Source: Leptonemataceae bacterium (GTDB lineage Bacteria > Spirochaetota > Leptospiria > Leptospirales > Leptonemataceae). Taken from it: DNA of 64,000 nucleotides. The position numbers and the translations under genes are program-made. Below, one piece after another: positions 2,424 to 54,859 of the stretch. How positions within the stretch are numbered: the stretch's first letter is position 1; each line of letters begins with the position of its first letter. Location: contig OZ245742.1 of the NCBI GenBank assembly GCA_965227295.1, positions 672,001 to 736,000 on the forward strand, written 5' to 3'. The notes below the pieces were generated by a model. The model worked only from the letters and a program-made list of their open reading frames with translations, had not been told where the DNA came from and did not search any database.

Positions 2424-3371
2424 TCAGTCTTCGCCGATCACCACGATGCTCTCCGGTCCCGTCCGGGAATCCCGGACGCCGCGGATGGCGGCCGTGACCA
2501 GGGCCTCTCCGGGAAACCCCTGCTTCTGAGCCCGGGAGCGCCCCATACGACGGTAAAACTCTTTCGGAATTTCCGTTACGACGCCCGCGGAAACCGTTGT
2601 CCGTCCGGCATCGCGCACTGCCGCCTGGATCCGCCCGGCAACGTGGCGGGCTCCGGCTTCGGGTGTCTCGGAAAGCACGGCGACGAAGAGGCCTTCTTGA
2701 TCGTAGCGACCCGCGGCGTCGCCGGGCCGGCGCAGGCTTTCCTGAAGCGCTGCCGCGGAACGCTGCACGTTCGCGGCATCGAGAAACGCCTGGCCGTCCA
2801 TCTGCACGGCGATCACCGAAAGCGGCCAGTCGTAACGCATGCAACGCCGCCACTCGGTTTCGTGGAATCGCTCCAGGCCGTAACGATTGAATAGACCGGT
2901 TGCGCTGTCGTGAAGCTCGGGGGCCGAGGCATCCTCCACCCGGCCGGTCAATCGGCGCACGTGCCGTTCGAGGCGGCCGTGCTCCATGCGACAGGTTGCC
3001 AGACGACCGAGGTTGCGCAGCCGTAAATGAAACTCCGCCTCGGACGGCGCCCGGGATACCAGATCCCCGCTCAAGTCTTCGTCGGCCATGATGCCCTGGA
3101 TCAACGCAAAGTACTCCGGCTCCGCGATCCATAGATAGACCGCTTCGTTCGGCATGTTCGCCGCTACGGATCGATAGTCCCCGGCTGTTTCTTCGGAGTC
3201 CACGTCGAAGACCGTAAGGATCGGCTCGGCCGCGTCTTCCTCGCGCACCGAGACCATATCCTGGAGATCGGCGACGGAGTTGCAGGGTATGCATCGATAG
3301 CCGTCGTCGAGGGCGGTCTTTACAGATGATTGAAAGGCGCGGTTGGATGAGACGATGTAGGCGGCAATCAC
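2424..3371 (-). CDS. Degenerate PleD-like protein: pseudo-receiver, coiled coil and degenerate GGDEF domain
   Basis: DSATGLFNR, EWRRCMR..PLSVI, RPGD I-site; active site reads RYDQEGLF instead of RYGGEEF; TVSAGV. Confidence 0.8.
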   Translation of the reverse strand: MIAAYIVSSNRAFQSSVKTALDDGYRCIPCNSVADLQDMVSVREEDAAEPILTVFDVDSEETAGDYRSVAANMPNEAVYLWIAEPEYFALIQGIMADEDLSGDLVSRAPSEAEFHLRLRNLGRLATCRMEHGRLERHVRRLTGRVEDASAPELHDSATGLFNRYGLERFHETEWRRCMRYDWPLSVIAVQMDGQAFLDAANVQRSAAALQESLRRPGDAAGRYDQEGLFVAVLSETPEAGARHVAGRIQAAVRDAGRTTVSAGVVTEIPKEFYRRMGRSRAQKQGFPGEALVTAAIRGVRDSRTGPESIVVIGED

Positions 3372-6342: not shown

Positions 6343-6558
6343 AATTCCCGCCGTCACGGCTCCGGGCCGTGCTCAGGTCATCTCACGACGACATTATCAT
6401 AAGAAAATAAAAAATCCCGCGGAATTCACCACGGACGCGCGGATTTTTCTTTATCCGTGTCGCGCGGAGTGCAATCCTGCATCGTGCCGTTCGATATTGA
6501 TAATGACGCCGCGGGTTTCCCGGAATCCGCCGGGGCCGGCTTCAGGGAATTCTTCGAC

Positions 6559-7467
6559 GTGCACTTCAGCAAGTTCATCTACTCGGCTGCTGTCTTGATC
6601 ATCGGCATCTGCGCGAGCCTGTATTATCTGGCGTCGCGAACACCGGAATCTTCCGGGCGACCTCTCGTCGCGGAATCAGCGGCTTTGCCCGAGGGTGCGC
6701 GGTATCATCTCGTGCCGATCCTGTGTTTTCACAACGTGGATGGATCCGGGCCCTACGCTGTGACCCGGGAGAAGTTCCGGCAGTACATGGAAGCCATCCG
6801 CCGGAGCGGCGTGCGCGTCATTTCCCTGCGCGAACTCTACGAGGCGGCCAAACGCAACGAACTTATGTCGCAACCGTCCATCGTGCTGACGGTCGACGAC
6901 GACTACAAAAACATCGTCCGCGTGGCGGCGCCCATCTTGCGCGAGTACAACTACCCCGCGACGTTTTTCTTTTATACGCGCGGCATTTTGCCGGATCCAC
7001 GCTGGGGCACTTCCTGGCAGGACCTGCGCCGCCTGCATCGCGAAGGCTTCGATATTCAGAACCACAGCTACAGTCACACGAAGTTTCACGAAAAGCGCGC
7101 GAACGAAGACGACGACGCCTACGCGCATCGCGTGCGCCGCGAGATCATCACATCACGAGAAATCTTGCAGAAGAACCTGCCGGACGCCGACCTCTATGCG
7201 TTCGCGTATCCCATGGGCTTTTACAGCGACTACCTGCGCGAACGCCTGCTCGCCGCCGGTTACGATCTTTTGCTCACCACGGACTCGCGGCCGGTGGATC
7301 TTTCGAAGCCGTTCGATCCCACGTTCGATCGCTACACGATTCAAAAGTTTCTCGTGAAGAATCCCGAGGCGATGTTTCGCAAGCAACTGCAGTATGCGCG
7401 GAGTCCGTTTGATGCGGAGGTGGTGGCGCAGTCAGATGCGGTTGAGGATGATGAAGTGGGGAATTGA
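6559..7467 (+). CDS. Membrane-anchored polysaccharide deacetylase (CE4)
   Basis: N-terminal TM segment, PILCFH, LTVDDD, ATFFF, QNHSYSH, FAYPMG. GTG start follows AGGGA. Confidence 0.85.
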   Translation: MHFSKFIYSAAVLIIGICASLYYLASRTPESSGRPLVAESAALPEGARYHLVPILCFHNVDGSGPYAVTREKFRQYMEAIRRSGVRVISLRELYEAAKRNELMSQPSIVLTVDDDYKNIVRVAAPILREYNYPATFFFYTRGILPDPRWGTSWQDLRRLHREGFDIQNHSYSHTKFHEKRANEDDDAYAHRVRREIITSREILQKNLPDADLYAFAYPMGFYSDYLRERLLAAGYDLLLTTDSRPVDLSKPFDPTFDRYTIQKFLVKNPEAMFRKQLQYARSPFDAEVVAQSDAVEDDEVGN

Positions 7468-7473
7468 ATCCGT

Positions 7474-8343
7474 ATGCGGTCTGATTCTTCCGAGCCGTCC
7501 GAACCAGTCATTACACCGATTGATTTTGCACGTCCGGCGTCGCTCGACGACGGACAAATCAATAGCGTGCGCAAGATGCACGAGGGCTTCGCGTATCTTA
7601 CCAAACAAAGGATTCAGTCTCTCTATTGCATAGACCAGGTTGAATGCCGACTCACGAACGTGGAGCAGATACTGTTTCGCGAGTATCGCGCAGGACGACA
7701 AGAACCCGGCATTTTCTCGTTCATCCAGATGAACCCGATACCTGCCGGGGCCGTTTTCGAACTGGAACCTTCCCTCGCGTTCATATTTCTGGATCTCGAC
7801 CTCGGCGGGACCGGTGATGTAGAAATTCCGAAGCGCGAGCTTTCCGATTTCGAAATGCCCCTCCTCGAAAGGCTCGTCCTGTATCTCCTGGGAAATCTAC
7901 GCGAAGTCTGGTCGTCGGTGATCGATTTACGCCCCAGGCTCGGTAATCTGGGAACAGAACTCGATTGGATTCCGATCGCGCCGGATGACGACATGACCAC
8001 GGTCGCATCGTTTGAGCTCCGCATCAACGACCTCCGGGGCACTATGAGCTTTGCTTATCCGTACGCGTGCTTCCAGGACCTGGAACTGAGCCCGCGGGAG
8101 CACTACTACAACCGGCCCACCGATCATGAAAGTTTCGGAGGCGACATTGCACGCGGCGCGAGCGTGCGGACGTTCCGTGAATTTCGAGTCGCCCGGAACA
8201 CGACTTACGCCGCCGTCAAAAAGTTACAACCCGGCCAAACCGTTTCGATCGATACGGACAACGCGAGCCGAACACTGTACACCGCGCGACTTGAGTCATA
8301 CGACGCATTGAGCGAGCACCACTCTGCGGAAGACCTTTCATGA
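7474..8343 (+). CDS. Divergent FliM paralogue lacking the N-terminal CheY-binding peptide
   Basis: DFARP, MHEGFA, LGGTG (GGxG), RELSDFE, LLGNLREVWSSVIDLRPRLGN follow the spirochaete FliM middle domain; degenerate SpoA tail (KLQPGQTVSID); no LSQxEIDxLL. Confidence 0.8.
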   Translation: MRSDSSEPSEPVITPIDFARPASLDDGQINSVRKMHEGFAYLTKQRIQSLYCIDQVECRLTNVEQILFREYRAGRQEPGIFSFIQMNPIPAGAVFELEPSLAFIFLDLDLGGTGDVEIPKRELSDFEMPLLERLVLYLLGNLREVWSSVIDLRPRLGNLGTELDWIPIAPDDDMTTVASFELRINDLRGTMSFAYPYACFQDLELSPREHYYNRPTDHESFGGDIARGASVRTFREFRVARNTTYAAVKKLQPGQTVSIDTDNASRTLYTARLESYDALSEHHSAEDLS

Positions 8344-9572
8344 ACGAGGCAGAGAAAAATCCCCCGAATACCATTGCGACCTTAGCAGACCTCCTTCCGG
8401 GAGACCTGTGTGTTCGGCTCGGCGATGGTACATTTTCGTATCAGGAATTCCTGGACGGAGCACATCGTCCCGCATCTGTTCCAGCGCAATGCCGGGAAAA
8501 ACGTGGAAGCCTTAACTTTCAGGGAGTTGACATTTGTTCCATTGAACTGTCTCCGGACGGGCAGAACCTAACCATCCAGAGCAGACCCGTTTCCGTCGAA
8601 ACGATTCGAGCCGATGCTGTCGTTGAACTGAGCGCTGAAGTCGGCCGAACGTGGCTCGACCTGGGAGACGTGGCCGCTCTAAACAGCGGAACCGTGATCG
8701 AAGTAAACCGCCACCCCGATGAACCCATAACGCTCTTCATAGCCGGCCATGCCGTGGGTACGGCGCGACCGGTCCGCATCGACGACTTCTACGGGATTCG
8801 TGTGGAATCGCTATTTGAAATGGATGCGCTGGCAGCACGGCTGAATCAGGCCGGGCCGCTTGAGGACCGCATTCATCAAGCCTCGGTGATGGCAACAGAA
8901 CGTCCCGGAATCGAGAGCCGGCTCCTCTTCGGTCGAACACGCCTGAGGTATTCCGAACTGGCCGAACTCCACGTCGGTCAATTGCTCGCGTTAGATCGCA
9001 TCGTCGGCCTGCCCGCCGAGTTCGTACTGGACTCCGGGTTGCGTTTGCCGGCAGAAGTGTGTACGTCCGCCGACTTTCTCGCGGCCCGAATCATCGGCCG
9101 GCCTCTAAACCTGCTGCCCGAAATTGACACAGGCCGACGCATCGAATCGGATGATGAGCCTGAAGTGCCCGTTGCTGTTTCGGAACCAGGCGAAGGACGT
9201 TCGGAAACCGACGCATCGTCGCCGGTACCGGATCTGCAACTACCGGACGAGCCGACTGTGTTTGACGCCGCACAACTCGTGGATCCCGCCCTCGTTGCCG
9301 GAGTGCTGATCCCGGAACTCGATCAACTCATCGCCTTCGTGCTCGTTCACTTCACATCGGATCGGGCGGCGGAGGTGTTACGCAGGTTCCCGGAATCGCG
9401 ACAGGATAAAATCTTGCGGCGCATGTCAAAGATTGAATCAACCCGGGTCGACATCGACTACGAAGTAAACCGGGTCCTGATACGAAAGCTATACTATCGG
9501 CCTACTTCGAAGGAACACGACGGCCGCGCCACCGCCGATGAAATTCGCGCGGAACTGGAAAAACCCGGGTGA
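8340..9572 (+). CDS. Fusion of tandem FliN/SpoA domains with a FliG middle domain
   Basis: Two clear FliN-like units (LSAEVGRTWLDLGDVAALNSGTVIEV...GIRV; LLFGRTRLRYSELAELHVGQLLALDR), a possible third degenerate N-terminal unit, then FliG-M-like DPALVAGVLIPELDQLIAFVL...AAEVLRRFP...ILRRM...EVNRVLIRKL. ATGA overlap with the upstream gene. Confidence 0.75.
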   Translation: MNEAEKNPPNTIATLADLLPGDLCVRLGDGTFSYQEFLDGAHRPASVPAQCREKRGSLNFQGVDICSIELSPDGQNLTIQSRPVSVETIRADAVVELSAEVGRTWLDLGDVAALNSGTVIEVNRHPDEPITLFIAGHAVGTARPVRIDDFYGIRVESLFEMDALAARLNQAGPLEDRIHQASVMATERPGIESRLLFGRTRLRYSELAELHVGQLLALDRIVGLPAEFVLDSGLRLPAEVCTSADFLAARIIGRPLNLLPEIDTGRRIESDDEPEVPVAVSEPGEGRSETDASSPVPDLQLPDEPTVFDAAQLVDPALVAGVLIPELDQLIAFVLVHFTSDRAAEVLRRFPESRQDKILRRMSKIESTRVDIDYEVNRVLIRKLYYRPTSKEHDGRATADEIRAELEKPG

Positions 9573-9907: not shown

Positions 9908-11620
9908 TCACTGCCCACGCTTCTGATTCACCAATCGCTGCAAATCACTGAACTGCAACAGATCCCGCTGATCCTTGCCGGCGGCGATCATCGGAAAGAC
10001 CTTCTCATCCGCGGGGATCACCACTTCGAGAAACGCCGGCTCGTTCGGATCTTTCAGAAAAAACTCCACGCCGTCTTCGATCTCGTCCGGCTTCACGATG
10101 CGTTTGCCGGGGATGTCGAAGGACTCGGCAAGCTTGACGAAGTTCGGATTGTACTGCCACTCGGATTCCGAGAAGCGCTCTTCGAAGAACAGCTCCTGCC
10201 ACTGGCGGACCATGCCCAGAAAATCGTTGTTTAACAGTAAGATCTTCACGCCCAGGTTGTACTGGCGGATCGTCGCGAGTTCTTGAATGCACATCTGGTA
10301 CGAGCCGTCGCCGGTGACGCAGATCACCAGGTCGTCGGGCTTCGCAAATTTTGCGCCGATGGCCGCGGGCAGGCCGTAGCCCATGGTGCCCAGGCCGCCG
10401 GACGTGAGCCAGCGATTCGGTTCGTCGAAGAGATAGTACTGCGCCGCCCACATCTGGTGTTGACCCACGTCCGTCGAAACGATGGCCTTGCCCTGCGTGA
10501 CCTCGTAGATTCTCTCCAGCATGCGCTGCGGTTTGATGACTTCGCTGCTGTCTTCGTACGCGAGCGGAAACTTCTGTTTGTACGCATCTAAGTGATTCAC
10601 CCACTCCGATCGATCTTTCTTTTCAACGTACGGCAGGAGCGCCTGGAGCACGTCTTTGAGATCGCCGGAAACGTAATGATCCACCGTAACGCGCTTGTTG
10701 ATTTCGGCGGGGTCGATGTCGATGTGCGCACGCACGGCCTGTTCAGCAAACTGATCGGCACGTCCCGCAACGCGATCGTCGAAGCGCGCGCCGAGGGAAA
10801 AAATAAAATCACATTCGAGGATGGCCTTGTTCGCGTACGCCGTGCCGTGCATGCCGGGCATGCCCACGGACAAAATGTGCGATCCCGGAAACGCGCCGAG
10901 GCCCATCAACGTACACGTGACCGGCGCCATGGCTTTTTCGGCCAGCGAACGCACCTCGTGCGCCGCGTTGGCGTTGATGGCGCCGCCGCCGACATACAAC
11001 AACGGTCGCTCCGCGTTATTCAGCGCTTCGGCCAGCGCTTCGACATCGCCCTGTACCGGCGGATGCTTCAGGAAACGTTTGCTTAACTTCGGCTCGCTGC
11101 TGAACACAGACGTCGGCGCATTCTGCACGTCTTTCGGAAGATCGATCAACACCGGACCCGGGCGGCCCGTCGTGCACATGGTCCACGCCTCGGCGAAGAT
11201 CTGCGCGAGTTCGTCCACGTCTTTGATGAGCGCGTTGTATTTCGTAACCGGCAGGGTAATGCCGAAGATGTCCGCCTCCTGGAAGGCGTCCGAGCCGATG
11301 GCGGCCGTGGGAACCTGGCCGGTAATGACGAACAACGGGATACTGTCCATCTTCGCGTCGCAGAGGCCGGTGATGGTGTTCGTCGCACCGGGGCCGCTGG
11401 TGACGATGGCGACGCCGGGCCGGCCGGTGGCACGAGCGTAGCCCTCGGCCATGTGCACGGCACCCTGCTCGTGTCGCACGAGGATGTGTTTGATGTTGGA
11501 ATGATACAGTTCGTCGTAGAACGGAAGAATCGCGCCGCCGGGATAGCCGAAGACGAGGTCCACCCCGTGCGATTCGAGGAGTTCCACAAGCAGGCGCGCG
11601 CCGGTTTTCGTAGCAGTCAT
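9908..11620 (-). CDS. ilvB: Acetolactate synthase large subunit
   Basis: [43 protein letters not shown] motif GDGS...NN. Confidence 0.95.
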
Positions 11621-11737: not shown

Positions 11738-12166
11738 ATGATTACACAAAACAACCTGTCCCGCAAAGCATTACTCGGCCGCGCCGGTGCCCTCCTGGCC
11801 GCCGTCGCCGTGGTACCCTACTGCAGCCGCACGGCCCACGCAGCCGATCCGCTCACGGCGTCAGCCCTGGACTGCGTCGGCATCGGGGAAGAGTGTCTCA
11901 CCCACTGCCTCGAAAGTCTGAGCAAGGGCGACGACTCCCTCAAACGCTGCGCCGTCACGGTCCGCGACACGATCACGGCCTGCGAGGCCCTGGCCGGTTT
12001 CTCCGCCGCGAAGTCCGAACACCTCGCCGCGTACATCCCCGTGTGCAAAAAGATCTGCGAGGACTGCCGCGACGAATGTGAAAAGCACGCGAAGCACCAC
12101 GACATCTGCAAACGCTGTGCGGATGCCTGCGCCGCATGCATCGATGCAATGAACGCAGTGGCGTAA
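11738..12166 (+). CDS. Four-helix-bundle copper storage protein (Csp1/2-like), probably Tat-exported
   Basis: LSRKALL Tat-like signal ending AHA; 13 Cys in the mature part arranged as CxxxC/CxxC (CKKICEDCRDEC, HHDICKRCADACAAC); GGAGG RBS. Confidence 0.85.
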   Translation: MITQNNLSRKALLGRAGALLAAVAVVPYCSRTAHAADPLTASALDCVGIGEECLTHCLESLSKGDDSLKRCAVTVRDTITACEALAGFSAAKSEHLAAYIPVCKKICEDCRDECEKHAKHHDICKRCADACAACIDAMNAVA

Positions 12167-30927: not shown

Positions 30928-31314
30928 TTAGATCAGGAAACGACGCACGGTCGCGAGGAGATTGTCCGCATCGAAGGGTTTCTGAATCCAGGCCCGGATT
31001 CCAGCCGCCCGCGCCTCGGTTTCGAATCTCTCGCAGCGTTCCGTGGTGAGCATCACCACCGGCGTAAAACGATGATGGCCTTCCGCGCGCAGTCGCTTTA
31101 CGAATCCCATACCGTCCACGTTCGGCATGTTTACATCGCACAGAATAAGATCGACGTCCTTGCGTTCTTCGAGTTGCACGAGTGCGTCGGCTCCGTCGGT
31201 GCCTTCGAGAATTGTGTAGCCCACTCCGGATAAAGCGATTCCCACCACCTTCCGAATGGAGGGGGAGTCATCTACGATCATGATCGTATGGGTTTTCTGT
31301 GCTACGGTGGTCAT
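30928..31314 (-). CDS. Single-domain CheY-like response regulator
   Basis: IVDDS, CDVNMPNVDG, MLTTE, WIQKPF; GGAG RBS. Confidence 0.9.
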   Translation of the reverse strand: MTTVAQKTHTIMIVDDSPSIRKVVGIALSGVGYTILEGTDGADALVQLEERKDVDLILCDVNMPNVDGMGFVKRLRAEGHHRFTPVVMLTTERCERFETEARAAGIRAWIQKPFDADNLLATVRRFLI

Positions 31315-47568: not shown

Positions 47569-48531
47569 GTGAGTACGAAGCATACATTCCAGGTCCCTCC
47601 GGATTCCGAAGAAGAACGCCTCGACCAATGGCTGACGGCGCAATTGGGCGCGGAAGCCAGCCGCAGTCTTGTGCAAAAAGCCATCAAATCCGGTCGCGTA
47701 ACCGGAGAGGGGATCATCAACGCCCGGCGCAAAATCCAGCCGGGAGAAACGTACACGATCACCCTGGCGGAACCGGAGTCGTCTACGCGCATCGAACCGC
47801 GGCCGCTGGACTTGAACATGGTCTATGAAGACGCGGACCTGGCCGTATTGCACAAGCCGCCCGGCATTGCGGTCCATCCCGGGCCCGGGGATGATCGAAC
47901 CAGCATTGCCCACGGCATACTGCATCGGTGGGCGACTCTACAGAGCGAGTATGACGCTGCCGGAGACAGCGCGGGCAGTGAAGACTCACTGCGTCCGGGC
48001 ATCGTCCATCGCCTGGACCGGGATACAGAGGGTTTGCTCATCGTTGCGAAACATGCGAAGGCGCAGCGCCTGCTCTCGGAACAGTTTGCACGCCGGGAGG
48101 TGCGCAAAGAGTACACGGCCTGGCTGCACGGCGCCCCGCCGGCCGGCCGCGGTCGTTTTGAAGACCCCATCGCCCGCCATCCGAAGCATCGCCGGCGCAT
48201 GCGCATAGACCCGGCCGGTCGCTCCGCACTGACGGAGTACGAGGTCCGCGAGGCAGTCAACACCAGCCGCGGCCGAAAGTTCTGCCGGGTGGACATAAGA
48301 TTGCATACCGGTCGCACCCATCAGATCCGCGTGCACTTCAGCCACGCCGGCGCCCCGGTGGTCGGCGATCCACTGTACTCCCGGAGTCATCAGGACTACG
48401 CGGATTTCGGCATGCTTCTACTCGCACAACGCCTGGGCTTCACGCAACCTCTGACCGGGGCGGCCCTGGAATTTGCGCTGGAACTGCCGCCGCGCTTCCA
48501 GGATTTCGCCGGGCGCTGCCGGAACTTCTAG
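47569..48531 (+). CDS. RluA/RluD-family pseudouridine synthase with S4 domain
   Basis: RLDQWL..SRS, KPPGIAVHP, RPGIVHRLDRDTEG, TGRTHQIRVH, GDPLY. Confidence 0.92.
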   Translation: MSTKHTFQVPPDSEEERLDQWLTAQLGAEASRSLVQKAIKSGRVTGEGIINARRKIQPGETYTITLAEPESSTRIEPRPLDLNMVYEDADLAVLHKPPGIAVHPGPGDDRTSIAHGILHRWATLQSEYDAAGDSAGSEDSLRPGIVHRLDRDTEGLLIVAKHAKAQRLLSEQFARREVRKEYTAWLHGAPPAGRGRFEDPIARHPKHRRRMRIDPAGRSALTEYEVREAVNTSRGRKFCRVDIRLHTGRTHQIRVHFSHAGAPVVGDPLYSRSHQDYADFGMLLLAQRLGFTQPLTGAALEFALELPPRFQDFAGRCRNF

Positions 48532-50060
48532 AACGCCTCGCCCCGGGGATTCGGATGCGCCCGCGCGATCGTTTCCGATTCACGAGTGAGCAGTTGCGCC
48601 TCGCGCTGTTGTGCCGCCGCGGCCAGGTCGGCATCGAGGATGACGAACGTAACGTCGTCCTCAAAGTCGGCGCGGGGAGTGATCCAGTCACGCAGCCCTT
48701 CTTCCAGGCGGGCGGCGAAGGCGTCGGCATCGAGGTCGCGGTGACGGGCGGCAAAATCCCGCAAACGCTCCTCGCCCCAGATATCGCCCTTGCGATTGCG
48801 CGCCTCGGTGACACCGTCGGTGTAGAGGATGATGCGATCGCGCTCGTGCAACGGATCCTCAAAGGTCTCGACCTCGATGTCGGGACGCATGCCGAGGATC
48901 GTGCCGCGCCCGCGGCGAGCCTCCAGGACCGCGCCGCTGTCCCGATCGATGCGCAGTAGCGAAGGATGGCCGGCATGGGCGTAGACCAGCCGGCCGCTTT
49001 CGGGATCCACGCAAACCGCCGCCGCCGTAATGAACTGCTTGCGAAACTTACCGTAGAGCTCGCGGTTCATGGTCTCCAGCAGACGACCGGGCTCCGGCAT
49101 CAGATTCTGCCACTGACTCAACGAGACCTTGAGCATGCTGGCCACGAGCGCGGCTGCCACGCCATGGCCGGAGACATCGGCCAGCAGGACGCCGGTCCGA
49201 CCGGGCTCGAACGAAACGAAGTCGTAGAAGTCCCCGCCCACGGCCGCCATCGGCAGAAAGCTGCCATGAACCCGCAGGCCGTTGCACGACGGCGGGGCCC
49301 CGGGCAGAATGGAGAGCTGAATCTGCCGGGCGAATTCCAGTTCTCGCTGAAGGGCTTCCAGTTCCATTCGGCGACGGAGGGCGTGTTCCTCGCTGCGGCG
49401 CCGGGCGTCGGCGGATTCCACCAGGCGATGGATCATGTGGCGGGAGGTGGCCCCGATGTATCCAGAAATGATACCCAGCGCCAGGAAATAGGTGCAGAGG
49501 TTGAGCAGGCTAGCCAGGGTAAAGAATGGATACTCGTCCTGAATACCGGCCGGGGCAGTCAGGTATGCGTAGTAGAACAACAGGGCATACTGGATCGATG
49601 CCAGGCTGCCGGCGACGACTCCGATACTCATGGACTGCCCCAGCCCCGTGGCCGCGACCACCAGCATGGAAATGCCGGTGAACGCACCGGTGGTGATGCG
49701 CGGGTAGATCCACTCGCCGGGATTGTAGAGCCACTGACCGACGAAGAGCGTGAGCGGCAATGTGACCGGGAGCAGGTAGATTACGTAGAGCATGTAGGGA
49801 GAGATCCGCTCTTTGCCTTCGACGGCACGCTTGAGCATGTGAGAATCCCAGCCCAGCAGCAAACAATAGAGCGCGATGGTCGCTGTATTGATCTTTATAT
49901 TGAAGAAAGTCAGTTCTAATAGGGCGCCGACGTAGATCGTCAGAATCGACGCAACGCCCATGGCAATGACGAAACGCACGTAACGGAGAGCAGAGCGGGC
50001 GGACTCGCGCTGAAAGTCTGCATCCATCGCAGCGACATCGTTTCGCGCCCTACTGTTCAC
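48528..50060 (-). CDS. Membrane-bound SpoIIE/PP2C-type phosphatase
   Basis: About 6 TM segments; ELEFARQIQ, VGGDFYD, ADVSGHG, AGHP, YTDGVTE, DDVT. Confidence 0.9.
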   Translation of the reverse strand: MNSRARNDVAAMDADFQRESARSALRYVRFVIAMGVASILTIYVGALLELTFFNIKINTATIALYCLLLGWDSHMLKRAVEGKERISPYMLYVIYLLPVTLPLTLFVGQWLYNPGEWIYPRITTGAFTGISMLVVAATGLGQSMSIGVVAGSLASIQYALLFYYAYLTAPAGIQDEYPFFTLASLLNLCTYFLALGIISGYIGATSRHMIHRLVESADARRRSEEHALRRRMELEALQRELEFARQIQLSILPGAPPSCNGLRVHGSFLPMAAVGGDFYDFVSFEPGRTGVLLADVSGHGVAAALVASMLKVSLSQWQNLMPEPGRLLETMNRELYGKFRKQFITAAAVCVDPESGRLVYAHAGHPSLLRIDRDSGAVLEARRGRGTILGMRPDIEVETFEDPLHERDRIILYTDGVTEARNRKGDIWGEERLRDFAARHRDLDADAFAARLEEGLRDWITPRADFEDDVTFVILDADLAAAAQQREAQLLTRESETIARAHPNPRGEAF

Positions 50061-51562: not shown

Positions 51563-54500
51563 GTGGAAGCGATCAGCCGGTTTCTCACCGATCACAACGT
51601 CTACTTTAACTACTTTTCGTTCGCCAATCTCCTGGGATTCGTCTTCACGTTTTTCCTGGGCCTCTTCCTGGTAACACTGCCGAACCGTTCGAAGAGTACG
51701 AACCACCTGGGCATCTCGTTTCTGTTTCTGGCGCCCTTCTACCTGGCGTATGTCTTCGCCCACGCGTACTACGGCCCCGCGGCCGCCTACCACCGCTGGG
51801 TGACCGTCGGTGTCATTCTCATTCCGTTCATCCATTTTGTACAGTGGGCCCTCAAGTACCCGCGCAACGACTACCCCGTTGCCGGCTGGCTGTTCGCCGT
51901 CATGCAGTACCTCATTCTCCTGGCGAGTCTCGTGCTGTTCATCGGCATTACCAATAGTTCCGGGGTGAAGTTCCTCTTTACGGCACATCACTGGGACTTT
52001 GACGCGGACTTCTTCAGTGAACGCTACGGCGCCGTCATTTTATTGTACATCGTAATCTTCCTCGCCGTCGGAGTCTTTCGCACCATCTCCGTAAAAACGA
52101 AGGAGCGCTGGACCATTCTGGCCATCGTAATCGCCATTATGATCGCGGCGATCCTTCCGGCACCGCTCAACATCATGAGTCGCGGCGGTTACGTACCGCG
52201 CGGATTCTTCGTCACGGTTTTCGTGATCATGACGGTCCTCGGTTACTTCCTGGTCACGGTGATCTACATCAACCGTACCGAAGACCGCACCACCTTCATG
52301 GTGAAGATCGTCGGAATCTCTCTCGTAACGTTTCTGTTGATGATGCAGGCCATCAGCCTTGTTTCTCTTGAGGACCGCGAAGACGAGTACGACGCCCTGC
52401 ACGTGGAGTACACTCAGCGCGTCCTGGAAGGCGGCTCTCGCAATCCGGACATTCAGTACATTATCCGCTACGACTTACAGACCGGCCAGGCCGAACAAAG
52501 ATTTCCCGCAGCACCGATGCCGGTATCCTTCGAAGAGAACAAAGAAGACCTGGCAAACACCGCCGTCTACGAAGACCTGAAACGACTGCCCGAGGTCGGC
52601 TTCGGCGAGCAAGTGCAGTCCTACTTCGCGGAAAATTCTACGCATCCGTTCTTCGCCGGCTATCGCACCGCGATTCTGAATTTCATCGAAAGCTCCGAGG
52701 CCGAAGACGACGCCCTGGCGGACGCCACGGAGGCGTTCTTCAAGGACGTGAACATCACGACCCGGGTGAATCGCATTAAGATCAACAAGCTGCCCGACGA
52801 CGGCTTTCGCGCGCACCTGAACCGCCACCTTACGGAAGCCGAAGCGGAGTTCGCCCCCTTCGCGGCGGAGATCGATCGATTCCAGAAGAACCGCGAGGAA
52901 CTAAAAGACGCCGCGCTGAAACGCGAAGTTGTGCGCTTCCTCGCTCCGCTCAAACCCGAGTACGCCCGACACTTCCGTAAAGCCGATATCGAAAACTACG
53001 AAGAATTCCGGCACTTTACCGCCTTCACGCAGTACGATCGCAAACAGAACGCGGTCTACGAGGTCGGCTATTCGTACATCAACTATCGCAAGTACATTCA
53101 CGAGTCGGCCTTTACGCAGAAGATTATTCTGCTCGGCGTGCTCTTCGTACTGCTCGTCATTTTTCCGCTGTTCTTTCGCGGTTCGTTGATCAACCCGCTC
53201 AACAATCTGCTCTCCGGCGTGAAGCAGGTGAACGACGGCGACCTCTCGGTTCAGGTGCCCATCAAAGTCCAGGACGAGATCGGCTTTCTGGCCGGCTCGT
53301 TCAACAGCATGGTGGTTTCCATCCGTGACGCCCGGGAGAAACTCCAGGACTACGCTAACAATCTCGAAGAGAAAGTTAAGGAACGCACCGCTGAGTTGAA
53401 CCAGACCCTGGAAGAAGTGCGGGCCCTGAAGACCCAGCAGGACGGCGACTATTATCTCACGTCTCTGCTACAAAAGCCGCTGAACTACGATGCCAACAAG
53501 TCCGACCGCATCACGACGGACTTCTACATCAAACAGAAGAAGCGCTTCGAATTCCGCAGCAAACCGGGCGATCTCGGCGGCGACATCTGCGTTACCGGCA
53601 ACCTGCGCCTGGGAACGCCGGACAACTATCGACGCTATGTCGTCGCGGTGAACGGCGACGCCATGGGTAAGTCCATGCAGGGCGCCGGTGGTTCTCTGGT
53701 GATGGGTGTTGTAATGAACTCCATCCTGGCCCGCTCGGCGAAGGGCGACCGCATTCTCGACAGCACGCCGCAGCAATGGTTGACGGACGTTTACGACGAG
53801 GTCCACGGCGTGTTCACGGCCTTCAACGGCTCCATGGTCATCTCCGCGGTCATCGCGGTGGTCGACGAAGAGAGCGGTGAGATGTGGTACTTCAACGCCG
53901 AGCACCCGTATTCGGTAATCTATCGCAACGGCAAGGCTTCGTTCGTAGAAGAGGAACTACAGTTACGCAAGCTCGGCCTGGAATCCGAGATTCCCTTCGC
54001 GGTGCATTACTTCAAACTGGAACCCGGCGACATTCTGTACATGGGATCGGACGGTCGCGACGACCTGGATCTTACGCCGGACCAACCGGTCCGCACGATC
54101 AACGAGGACGAGTTCCTGTTTCTCAAACGCGTCGAAGAGGCCGACGGCGACATCGATCTCCTGGTGGAAGGCCTCTCCAGTCACGGCGGATTCACGGACG
54201 ACCTCTCGCTCTTACGCATCGCCTTCACCAACGTGCCGGCGCGCTCCCTCGATGACGACATCCCCGACGTGACCGAAGAAGGCGCCGACAACGAAGTCCG
54301 CCCGCCGGTCATCGACATCGACGTGCTCGACGAAGAGGAGCGCGCGTTCGAGGCGAGCATCTCCGGACGCGACGCCTCCGGCGACGATGAAGCTTTCAGC
54401 GGACTCGGCGCAGAGTTCGACGCGCTCTTAAGTGAAGGACGCGCCCTGGCCCGGGACGGCAAACACGCCGAGGCCCTGAACGTGCTGGATCGCGCCTACG

Positions 54501-54859
54501 CCATGCGCCAGGATGTACCCGCGCTGAACAAGATTCTTGCGGTGCTCACATTCAAAGAACGCGACTACGAAAAGGCCATCGAGATCCTCGACCAATACCT
54601 GGAGCACGATCCCGGCATTGTCGACTTCTGGCTGTATCTGTCCATTTCACTGAAGCGCACGGGCGAACTCCAGCGCGCGCTGCGTGCCGGCGAGAAGGTC
54701 CACAGCCTGGACTCCGAACGCGTGGTGAACTTGATCAACCTGGCCGACATCCATCAGAAACTCGGCAACGGCGAACGCGCCCGGGAATTTCTTGATCGCG
54801 CTCTCGAACTGGACCCGCAGAATCGCCAGGCACGCACTCTGAGTTCAGCCATTTCTTAA
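51563..54859 (+). CDS. Large membrane SpoIIE phosphatase (multi-TM, HAMP, PP2C, C-terminal TPR), Leptospira type
   Basis: About 8 N-terminal TM segments, HAMP (DEIGFLAGSFN), QDGDYYLTSLL, LGGDIC, GDAMGKSMQGAGG, NAEHP, GSDGRDD, TDDLS, TPRs. Confidence 0.9.
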   Translation: MEAISRFLTDHNVYFNYFSFANLLGFVFTFFLGLFLVTLPNRSKSTNHLGISFLFLAPFYLAYVFAHAYYGPAAAYHRWVTVGVILIPFIHFVQWALKYPRNDYPVAGWLFAVMQYLILLASLVLFIGITNSSGVKFLFTAHHWDFDADFFSERYGAVILLYIVIFLAVGVFRTISVKTKERWTILAIVIAIMIAAILPAPLNIMSRGGYVPRGFFVTVFVIMTVLGYFLVTVIYINRTEDRTTFMVKIVGISLVTFLLMMQAISLVSLEDREDEYDALHVEYTQRVLEGGSRNPDIQYIIRYDLQTGQAEQRFPAAPMPVSFEENKEDLANTAVYEDLKRLPEVGFGEQVQSYFAENSTHPFFAGYRTAILNFIESSEAEDDALADATEAFFKDVNITTRVNRIKINKLPDDGFRAHLNRHLTEAEAEFAPFAAEIDRFQKNREELKDAALKREVVRFLAPLKPEYARHFRKADIENYEEFRHFTAFTQYDRKQNAVYEVGYSYINYRKYIHESAFTQKIILLGVLFVLLVIFPLFFRGSLINPLNNLLSGVKQVNDGDLSVQVPIKVQDEIGFLAGSFNSMVVSIRDAREKLQDYANNLEEKVKERTAELNQTLEEVRALKTQQDGDYYLTSLLQKPLNYDANKSDRITTDFYIKQKKRFEFRSKPGDLGGDICVTGNLRLGTPDNYRRYVVAVNGDAMGKSMQGAGGSLVMGVVMNSILARSAKGDRILDSTPQQWLTDVYDEVHGVFTAFNGSMVISAVIAVVDEESGEMWYFNAEHPYSVIYRNGKASFVEEELQLRKLGLESEIPFAVHYFKLEPGDILYMGSDGRDDLDLTPDQPVRTINEDEFLFLKRVEEADGDIDLLVEGLSSHGGFTDDLSLLRIAFTNVPARSLDDDIPDVTEEGADNEVRPPVIDIDVLDEEERAFEASISGRDASGDDEAFSGLGAEFDALLSEGRALARDGKHAEALNVLDRAYAMRQDVPALNKILAVLTFKERDYEKAIEILDQYLEHDPGIVDFWLYLSISLKRTGELQRALRAGEKVHSLDSERVVNLINLADIHQKLGNGERAREFLDRALELDPQNRQARTLSSAIS

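Follow-up and report, generated by a model that had tools for sequence, protein, structure and literature searches.

Known switch systems and the gene pair

The canonical flagellar switch (C-ring) is made of FliG, FliM and FliN and is represented by structures of the Salmonella C-ring (8umd, 8umx, 8vib, 9n49). The same three domain families occur in a pair of genes within a 64,000-nt stretch of the genome of a Leptonemataceae bacterium (contig OZ245742.1, positions 672,001 to 736,000), which is called the window below. According to the list of open reading frames (ORFs), gene 1 (7474..8343, + strand) encodes an accessory FliM-like protein of 289 amino acids (aa), FliM' (P0001), and gene 2 (8340..9572, + strand) encodes a 410-aa fusion (P0002) that consists of an N-domain, two SpoA domains, a linker and a FliG middle domain (FliG_M). 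Both genes encode accessory paralogues of the switch proteins and are part of a rare family in which all named members come from spirochaetes. As in the canonical switch, the GGXG loop of the FliM-like protein is modelled on FliG_M, and the number of SpoA domains is near that of the canonical FliM_C plus three FliN. In contrast to the canonical switch, FliN-type and FliG_M domains share one chain, an N-domain is added, and FliG_N and FliG_C are absent. The pair further differs in having no CheY-binding peptide, a shortened SpoA on FliM', equivalog scores below cut-off and a position away from flagellar genes. FliN and FliG occupy opposite ends of the C-ring, the bottom and the top respectively, so that a conserved natural FliN-FliN-FliG chain with its own FliM partner is a topological surprise.

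Fusions of FliM to FliN exist as laboratory constructs. The engineered FliM(SPOA)::FliN proteins (4yxb, 4yxc) are the best fold match of P0002: as in P0002, two SpoA domains in one chain make up a pseudo-dimer. These constructs are man-made, whereas the tandem of P0002 is natural, preceded by the N-domain and followed by FliG_M. Laboratory FliF-FliG fusions are also on record, and the passages on fusions in the same source include no natural fusion of switch proteins (PMC7355467). In SctQ/SctQ-C (YscQ, Spa33, SpaO), SpoA1 and SpoA2 follow each other in a single polypeptide that has no direct role in torque, and these proteins match P0002 weakly. In contrast to SctQ, P0002 scores 57.4 bits where the cut-off is 100.8, it carries FliG_M and has a FliM_M partner, and there are no injectisome genes among the scanned ORFs of the window.

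Extra switch paralogues are already known in spirochaetes, and the parts of the present pair are known domains. Three FliG copies are described in L. interrogans (PMC11800159). FliY and additional C-ring paralogues of Campylobacter/Helicobacter and of spirochaetes, Borrelia FliG1 among them, are, like the pair, lineage-specific extras beside a canonical set. Unlike FliY, P0002 has no CheC-like domain (NF005995 35 bits against a cut-off of 218; no CheC family in the Pfam scan). To our knowledge none of these paralogues is a FliN-FliG fusion. A different kind of precedent is EpsE, a clutch that binds FliG. YcgR and MotI are FliG-binding brakes or clutches as well (PMC11800159). The pair may likewise be a non-torque element that acts on rotor contacts; it shares no homology with YcgR, MotI or EpsE and contains neither a PilZ nor a glycosyltransferase domain.

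Domain composition and predicted complex

FliM' matches the Pfam family FliM (PF02154) at E 2.1e-32 with 113.1 bits (cut-off 27) over residues 17-200, corresponding to model positions 2-185 of 192. This middle domain (7522..8073, + strand) also matches PDB chain 4fq0_B at E 5.1e-24. The motif LGGTG occupies residues 110-114, and the GGTG (GGXG) loop itself, residues 111-114 (7804..7815, + strand), can be read directly from the sequence; residues 106-113 take part in the modelled FliG_M interface. With the FliM equivalog TIGR01397 the protein reaches 108.6 bits, under the cut-off of 219.6, and the alignment begins only at model position 27. A CheY-P-binding peptide of the LSQxEIDxLL type is missing from FliM' in the family alignment (A6). 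An N-terminal extension carrying such a peptide is ruled out, because an in-frame TGA (7465-7467), the stop codon of the upstream deacetylase gene, lies two codons 5' of the ATG of gene 1 (7465..7476, + strand). The peptide is kept in all six other stand-alone FliM-like proteins of the family in that alignment and in the canonical FliM of the genome. The description of gene 1 as CheY-blind, made in an earlier reading of the letters (the original prediction), thus fits this protein and fails as a trait of the family.

At the other end of FliM', Pfam FliMN_C has no match at E<=1, and no complete C-terminal SpoA domain is found. The tail (residues 225-275, in the last ~60 residues) matches the first half of a SpoA domain: against SpoA1 of the fusion, hhalign gives 95% with all rows and 74.5% (E 2.7e-5, 25 columns) with accessory rows only, the match spanning 25-37 columns and controls reaching 0.1-0.3%. 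The shortened SpoA-like tail is placed at residues 226-270 (8149..8283, + strand). The FliM middle domain with its LGGTG loop, the missing LSQxEIDxLL peptide and the degenerate SpoA tail had all been proposed for gene 1 and are borne out.

The fusion P0002 matches FliMN_C (PF01052) in two stretches (E 4.1e-22, 78.3 bits) and FliG_M over residues 317-385 (E 9.8e-14, 51.8 bits, cut-off 25), so that profile scans detect FliM, FliMN_C and FliG_M in the pair, as had been expected. In an AlphaFold2 (AF2) model built from 27 aligned sequences, with a mean predicted local distance difference test score (pLDDT) of 74.7, the SpoA regions 94-158 and 190-251 are confident, residues 257-304 are disordered and a helical region at 309-386 is again confident. 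SpoA1 is FliN-type (residues 89-160; 8604..8819, + strand); it contains the best FliMN_C stretch (92-158), scores 61.8 bits alone and has a pLDDT of ~90. SpoA2 (residues 186-255; 8895..9104, + strand) scores 22.5 bits when taken alone, under the 23.8 cut-off, and is matched to SpoA1 by hhalign at 99.3%. In a Foldseek search with the AF2 model, the engineered tandem 4yxb covers both SpoA domains (E 7.7e-12, TMt 0.73-0.76, 160-174 columns), and structures of FliN, FliM_C and SctQ-C are matched as well. The two domains are followed by the acidic, proline-rich linker (residues 256-305; 9105..9254, + strand), which holds 14 D/E, 3 K/R and 8 P in 50 residues at a pLDDT below 50.

The FliG middle (ARM_M) domain comprises residues 306-390 (9255..9509, + strand), including R361, and superposes on FliG_M of the H. 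pylori FliG-FliM complex (4fq0_C) with TMt 0.91 and rmsd 1.3. The middle-domain motif of FliG is EHPQ...R, and its EHPQ position is occupied here by ELDQ (9315-9326). For FliG_N the score is 15.9 bits (below 25), confined to the FliG_M stretch, and FliG_C (PF01706) has no match at E<=1. The protein closes with a short C-terminal helix (AF2 helix 395-407) and its stop codon (9510..9572, + strand), with no FliG_C after it; this end is ~26 residues past the BLASTP match to the FliG of the same genome and ~10 residues beyond the place of the Gly-Gly hinge. The linker, the restriction to the FliG middle domain, the ELDQ reading and a stop at about the hinge had each been noted in the original prediction and are confirmed. 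Scores with the NCBIfam equivalogs are all below cut-off: FliN TIGR02480 64.9 against 84.05, FliG TIGR00207 37 against 226.7, and likewise SctQ (TIGR02551) and FliY (NF005995, which covers the SpoA part only) with the values given above. P0001 and P0002 are therefore relatives of switch proteins and not switch proteins themselves.

The family-specific N-domain of P0002 (residues 12-88 in alignment A5; 8373..8603, + strand) is small and beta-rich in the AF2 model (residues ~10-80, pLDDT ~70-84), with the order beta-beta-alpha-beta-beta-beta. Compared with SpoA1 by hhalign, it scores 43% (E 2.4e-4) in register. Foldseek places SpoA chains at all of ranks 1-8, yet only at E 0.4-1.2; in VIA-align, unrelated small barrels are on top (best Z 3.9) and SpoA chains follow at Z 3.0-3.4; a profile search of the PDB returns a single chance-level match (E 1.5). 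These comparisons weakly suggest that the N-domain could be a degenerate third SpoA. Two FliN-like domains of the original prediction are thus clear, and the third, at the N-terminus, is a faint candidate.

When the two products are modelled together, the median interaction prediction score from aligned errors (ipSAE) is 0.65, with single runs at 0.64-0.67, and the best of three controls scores 0.00. Of 80 solved complexes, 58 attain the score mark of this test, as do 2 of 110 mismatched pairs; this calibration is approximate because custom alignments were used. The runs share at least 42% of contacts, and the partner pLDDT is at least 70. The confident interface sets residues 325-333 and 361-383 of P0002 against residues 106-133 of P0001, which corresponds to the textbook contact between the EHPQR face of FliG_M and the GGXG loop of FliM_M. 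A second patch joins residues 11-19 of P0001 to the SpoA pair of P0002. The proposal that the GGxG loop meets FliG_M is accordingly reproduced in the model, in which the loop lies on the ELDQ/R361 face, and modelling the pair alone recovers the canonical contact. For the 'FliM-FliN3-FliG(M) unit' that had been put forward, an intramolecular SpoA1:SpoA2 pair is modelled; the count of three rests on the weak third SpoA and the half-SpoA tail.

The two genes are coupled by an ATGA start/stop overlap, read at 8340..8343 (+ strand) as originally described. Their host carries the canonical set elsewhere: the genome (G000) is one 5.94-Mb contig, with canonical fliG, fliM and fliN/fliY away from the pair. 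Two tandem FliM genes lie near 4.066 Mb (G000:C1:4065632-4068400; L001, L002). The first has almost the same sequence as other spirochaete FliMs (branch 0.005, 275 bits); the second has diverged (branch 0.49, 219 bits) but retains a full SpoA domain. Counting P0001, there are three FliM-type genes in this genome; FliN/FliY-type genes are found at 3.004 and 5.415 Mb, and three canonical genes bear FliG_M. The pair is thus not the organism's sole set of switch genes, a point that the original prediction had left to be checked.

Distribution of the family and selection on its members

The family consists of a FliM-like protein that stands beside, or is fused to, an N-domain-SpoA-SpoA-FliG chain in which the FliG part is M, MC or NMC. 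Pfam content like that of the pair is present in G008, G113, genus g35 and G462 (alignments A1, A3, A5), and the N-domain fills at least half of its slice in 25 of 27 family rows (A5). A word-index protein search returned P0002 itself alone, a profile added two Leptospira proteins, and a search of the ESM Atlas gave no usable match. Among the 156 genomes of the order, a profile search finds full-length matches in 10, namely the host itself, the sister genus G008, seven of the eight genomes of genus g35 and one of g24. At least three carriers, including the host, occur in a phylum sample of 401 genomes, a lower bound since four candidates were scored per genome. A HMMER scan of 1.84 billion representatives yields 569 matches at E<=0.001 and only 7 at E<=1e-10, and it took this full scan to bring the family into view. 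Of 19 long distant metagenome matches scanned with Pfam, 16 contain FliMN_C and FliG_M, and seven of these have FliG_C too; FliM is fused in front in four of the distant matches (P0007, P0015, P0020, P0050) and a FapA domain is present in one. The architecture is hence not unique: the proposed search of the order's genomes recovered it in 10 of 156, and three of the 401 genomes sampled in the phylum carry it. Named members come from Leptospira sp., L. levettii, a Leptospiraceae bacterium and a Spirochaetota bacterium, and their database labels are 'hypothetical' or 'FliM/FliN family flagellar motor switch protein'. Among these names are members of the order Leptospirales, which agrees with the order guessed in the original prediction. 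The full-text literature searched, which leaves supplements and subscription journals uncovered, describes no natural FliN-FliG or FliM-FliN-FliG fusion.

A FliM-like gene lies directly upstream of the fusion in the window and in G008, G113, G151, G155 and G462. On a 12.9-kb contig (C120) of the sister genus G008, two fusions (412 and 392 aa) stand in tandem with three FliM-like genes; the family has been amplified locally there. This tandem (L025 2794-8083) runs head to tail, and a further FliM-like match is located in a 643-aa frame of the same genome (G008:C479:1736-2260). In genus g35 the fusion is longer, ~765 aa, with an extra N-terminal part of ~340 aa that has no Pfam match; residues 1-340 may be a second, unrecognisable FliM-like module. 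The g35 fusions (L031 472-2775 and relatives) open with a motif of the LSKKEIEALL type. In both g35 loci examined, the order is ilvB-ilvN-chemoreceptor-FliM'-fusion (L046 2068-9744, G151; L048 6728-12070, G155); the chemoreceptor, directly upstream of the FliM-like gene, has a dCache-HAMP architecture. In the window, ilvB (9908-11620, - strand) abuts the pair on the opposite strand. The presence of ilvB beside the pair in both places could be chance or the remnant of an old neighbourhood. Two carriers belong to another spirochaete family. In one, a FliM-like gene lies upstream of an N-domain-SpoA2-FliG_M-FliG_C protein of 585 aa; the other has a 1,106-aa protein with FliG N, M and C. In G462 (L057 3114-3836), a 240-aa ORF with no Pfam match at E<=0.01 overlaps the stop of a FliG_C-bearing fusion and is probably co-translated with it.

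Each of the five other carrier genomes examined has one high-scoring canonical FliM. In a tree of FliM_M, the accessory rows are long-branched (0.18-2.4, compared with 0.005-0.035 in five of six primary canonical FliMs), 12 of the 22 inner branches lack resolution, and a single origin is neither shown nor rejected.

An orthologous locus with the same gene order as the window is present on a 5,090-nt contig (run X3). Its alignment contains 192 differences and 12 gaps over 6400-7949, 100 differences and no gaps over 8162-9539, and 50 differences over 9908-10456. Two proteins from a contig of the same length, which is probably this one, represent the pair: P0171 shares 380 of 408 aligned residues with P0002 (93%), and P0172 shares 191 of 288 with P0001 (66%) and has an equally short N-terminus. 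Neither ORF is disrupted or differs in length between the two lineages, and the ATGA coupling is kept. At least 26 nucleotide changes are needed in residues 1-400 of P0002 and at least 24 in residues 230-289 of P0001 (at least 50 non-synonymous changes over 8162-9539), leaving ~50 synonymous changes over ~357 synonymous sites. The ratio of non-synonymous to synonymous rates (omega) of P0002 is ~0.2 on these counts, within a rough range of ~0.2-0.45 that points to purifying selection on the fusion. In neutral simulations, 73-82 random changes reduce P0002 to 86-88% identity, against 94% observed, and 140-160 changes reduce P0001 to 65-69%, against 66% observed. Neutral change seldom keeps the frame of P0001 open (1.3-3.8% of 20,000 trials with 120-160 substitutions), and gene 1 is therefore not simply a dead gene. 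The most conserved part of P0002 is residues 161-305, SpoA2 with both its linkers, where none of 145 residues has changed (SpoA2, 0/70). The linker 256-305 has 0/50 changes, compared with 10/88 in the folded N-domain, which would be odd for a mere spacer.

Across five species of g35, dN/dS is 0.04-0.11 for both genes with saturated dS, and residues 1-340 of the fusion give ~0.07; the family is therefore strongly constrained in this genus. The fast evolution of FliM' is peculiar to the lineage of the window, which in this set is also the one that lost the CheY peptide. GC content at third codon positions (GC3) is 0.60-0.64 in the pair and 0.74-0.81 in its neighbours. P0002 is the lowest (0.60) and P0001 the fifth-lowest (0.64) of 56 window ORFs, and the g35 copies have 0.18-0.21, so that GC3 tracks the host in every carrier. 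This would argue for long residence and low expression of the pair, and against recent import.

Possible roles and competing explanations

Since FliG_N, FliG_C and the CheY peptide are absent, the usual MS-ring attachment, stator torque and CheY-P sensing would not be available to the pair, in agreement with what had been proposed for it. The reading that we favour, with slightly less than even confidence, is that of a non-torque accessory unit acting on the switch or on the export apparatus. Both products would form one closed unit, in which the GGXG loop of FliM' is predicted to sit against FliG_M of the fusion at its ELDQ/R361 face, SpoA1 and SpoA2 would pair within the chain like FliM_C and FliN, and the acidic linker of ~50 residues would pass alongside FliM' and connect the SpoA base with the FliG_M cap above. 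With its SpoA and ARM_M surfaces, the unit may dock to canonical parts (the FliN/FliY base, FliH, the FliG ARM domains) or compete with them. Some relatives retain FliG_C, the CheY peptide or a neighbouring chemoreceptor gene, which suggests that the pair goes back to a functional alternative switch; the copy in this lineage looks like a reduced form of it.

A more specific idea, which we hold to be doubtful, is that the family provides natural covalently tethered C-ring protomers and that the reduced copy is a self-capped 'dummy protomer' or clutch, which would tune periplasmic-flagellar motors or pole asymmetry. By inserting into motors or docking on them, it might set the number of torque-bearing units or help the two poles to differ. 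The fast change of FliM' would then be a re-tuning of the contact and not decay.

Several observations weigh against the accessory unit. The modelled complex may reflect memory of solved FliM_M:FliG_M structures (4fq0, 3soh, 4fhr, 4qrm); because both proteins match such complexes, the result shows likeness and not binding by this copy. In the best complex run, the confident contacts include none between the FliM' tail and the N-domain, and fold searches assign the N-domain to no fold with confidence. The EHPQ position reads ELDQ (residues 326-329), with E, Q and R361 kept and H and P replaced. Physical linkage to motor genes is missing: a flagellar Pfam family at E<=1e-5 is found in none of the 50 other ORFs scanned (the window has 56 candidates, of which four small ones were left out), as the claim of no other flagellar gene in 64 kb had it. 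The locus sits at a synteny break, its flanking genes being 57 kb apart in one congener (G001) and 45 kb in another (G002), and an orthologue of the pair is absent from both congeneric genomes. Finally, the omega of P0001 is ~1 or more, with at least 120 non-synonymous changes, which fits relaxed constraint; like that of P0002, this value is rough, being derived from inferred minimum changes instead of a codon alignment.

Much of this would also be expected if the pair were a decaying remnant, all that is left in this lineage of an alternative switch unit that once worked and is now being lost. To the altered ELDQ motif, the absence from two of two congeners and the 66% identity of P0001 at an omega of ~1, one can add the CheY peptide, lost here and kept in the six other stand-alone proteins, the long accessory FliM branches and the low GC3 ranks of both genes. 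We nevertheless consider decay unlikely, given that P0002 is 93% identical to its orthologue, gap-free over 1,378 nt and has an omega of ~0.2-0.45, that its residues 161-305 are unchanged, that both ORFs remain intact, equally long and coupled in two lineages, and that the frame of P0001 would so rarely survive neutral change. The original prediction had allowed for decaying duplicates; this is not borne out for gene 2, and gene 1 is compatible with it. Another explanation, to which we also assign a low probability, places the pair outside the C-ring, in a motor-independent cytoplasmic platform that resembles the SctQ pods and serves as a scaffold or sink for signalling or export proteins. Such a platform would need no MS-ring or stator contact, in line with the missing FliG_N and FliG_C, and the tandem SpoA is SctQ-like, with 57.4 bits for TIGR02551 and with YscQ-C and Spa33 among the fold matches; a CheY-P-binding module would fit the chemoreceptor gene upstream in both g35 loci and the CheY peptides in most FliM-like proteins of the family. 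That SctQ score is below the cut-off of 100.8, however, P0001 has no CheY peptide, and the scanned neighbours include no secretion-system genes (type III secretion genes, 0/50). Every named carrier, moreover, is a flagellated spirochaete that also has canonical switch genes, and relatives with a full FliG in the fusion point to an origin in the motor.

Recent acquisition of foreign genes that have no role in the host is very improbable. The synteny break with flanks 57 and 45 kb apart and a GC3 lower than that of the neighbours are what such an event could leave; yet GC3 is near the host range and follows the host in every carrier, the same locus and flanks occur in a relative at ~88-93% nucleotide identity, the fusion has its nearest relatives within its own taxonomic family and order, and Pfam scans of the window ORFs reveal no mobile-element genes beside the pair.

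The family offers a natural experiment in the construction of switch protomers. Its graded forms (full FliG, FliG_MC or FliG_M; FliM fused or separate; CheY peptide present or absent; FapA once) are ready variants that could show on which contacts ring assembly, torque and switching depend. Every named carrier is a spirochaete and must control its two polar motor sets differently, a long-standing question that the family makes more approachable; members occur in saprophytic Leptospira, which are open to deletion and tagging. Even if the copy described here is only a decaying paralogue, the generic label 'FliM/FliN family flagellar motor switch protein' is corrected.

Around the pair, PADLOC defence-system models give 0 matches for P0001, P0002 and the upstream deacetylase. 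Between 6200 and 10000, a promoter scan finds 0 sigma-70-like sites, compared with a mean of 1.5 in shuffles, and 7 terminator-like sites, all on the minus strand, compared with 4.7; both counts are uninformative. A Cys-rich ORF of 142 aa (11738-12166, + strand) has a signal-like N-terminus and no Pfam match at E<=1e-5. A stand-alone 128-aa CheY-like receiver gene (30931-31314, - strand) lies 21 kb from the pair, with no link shown between them. Signalling genes are abundant in the window: a GGDEF-domain gene (2427-3371, - strand) is located 4 kb upstream of the pair, and two SpoIIE/PP2C phosphatase genes are found at 48531-50060 (- strand) and 51563-54856 (+ strand), one of them with HAMP and TPR domains.

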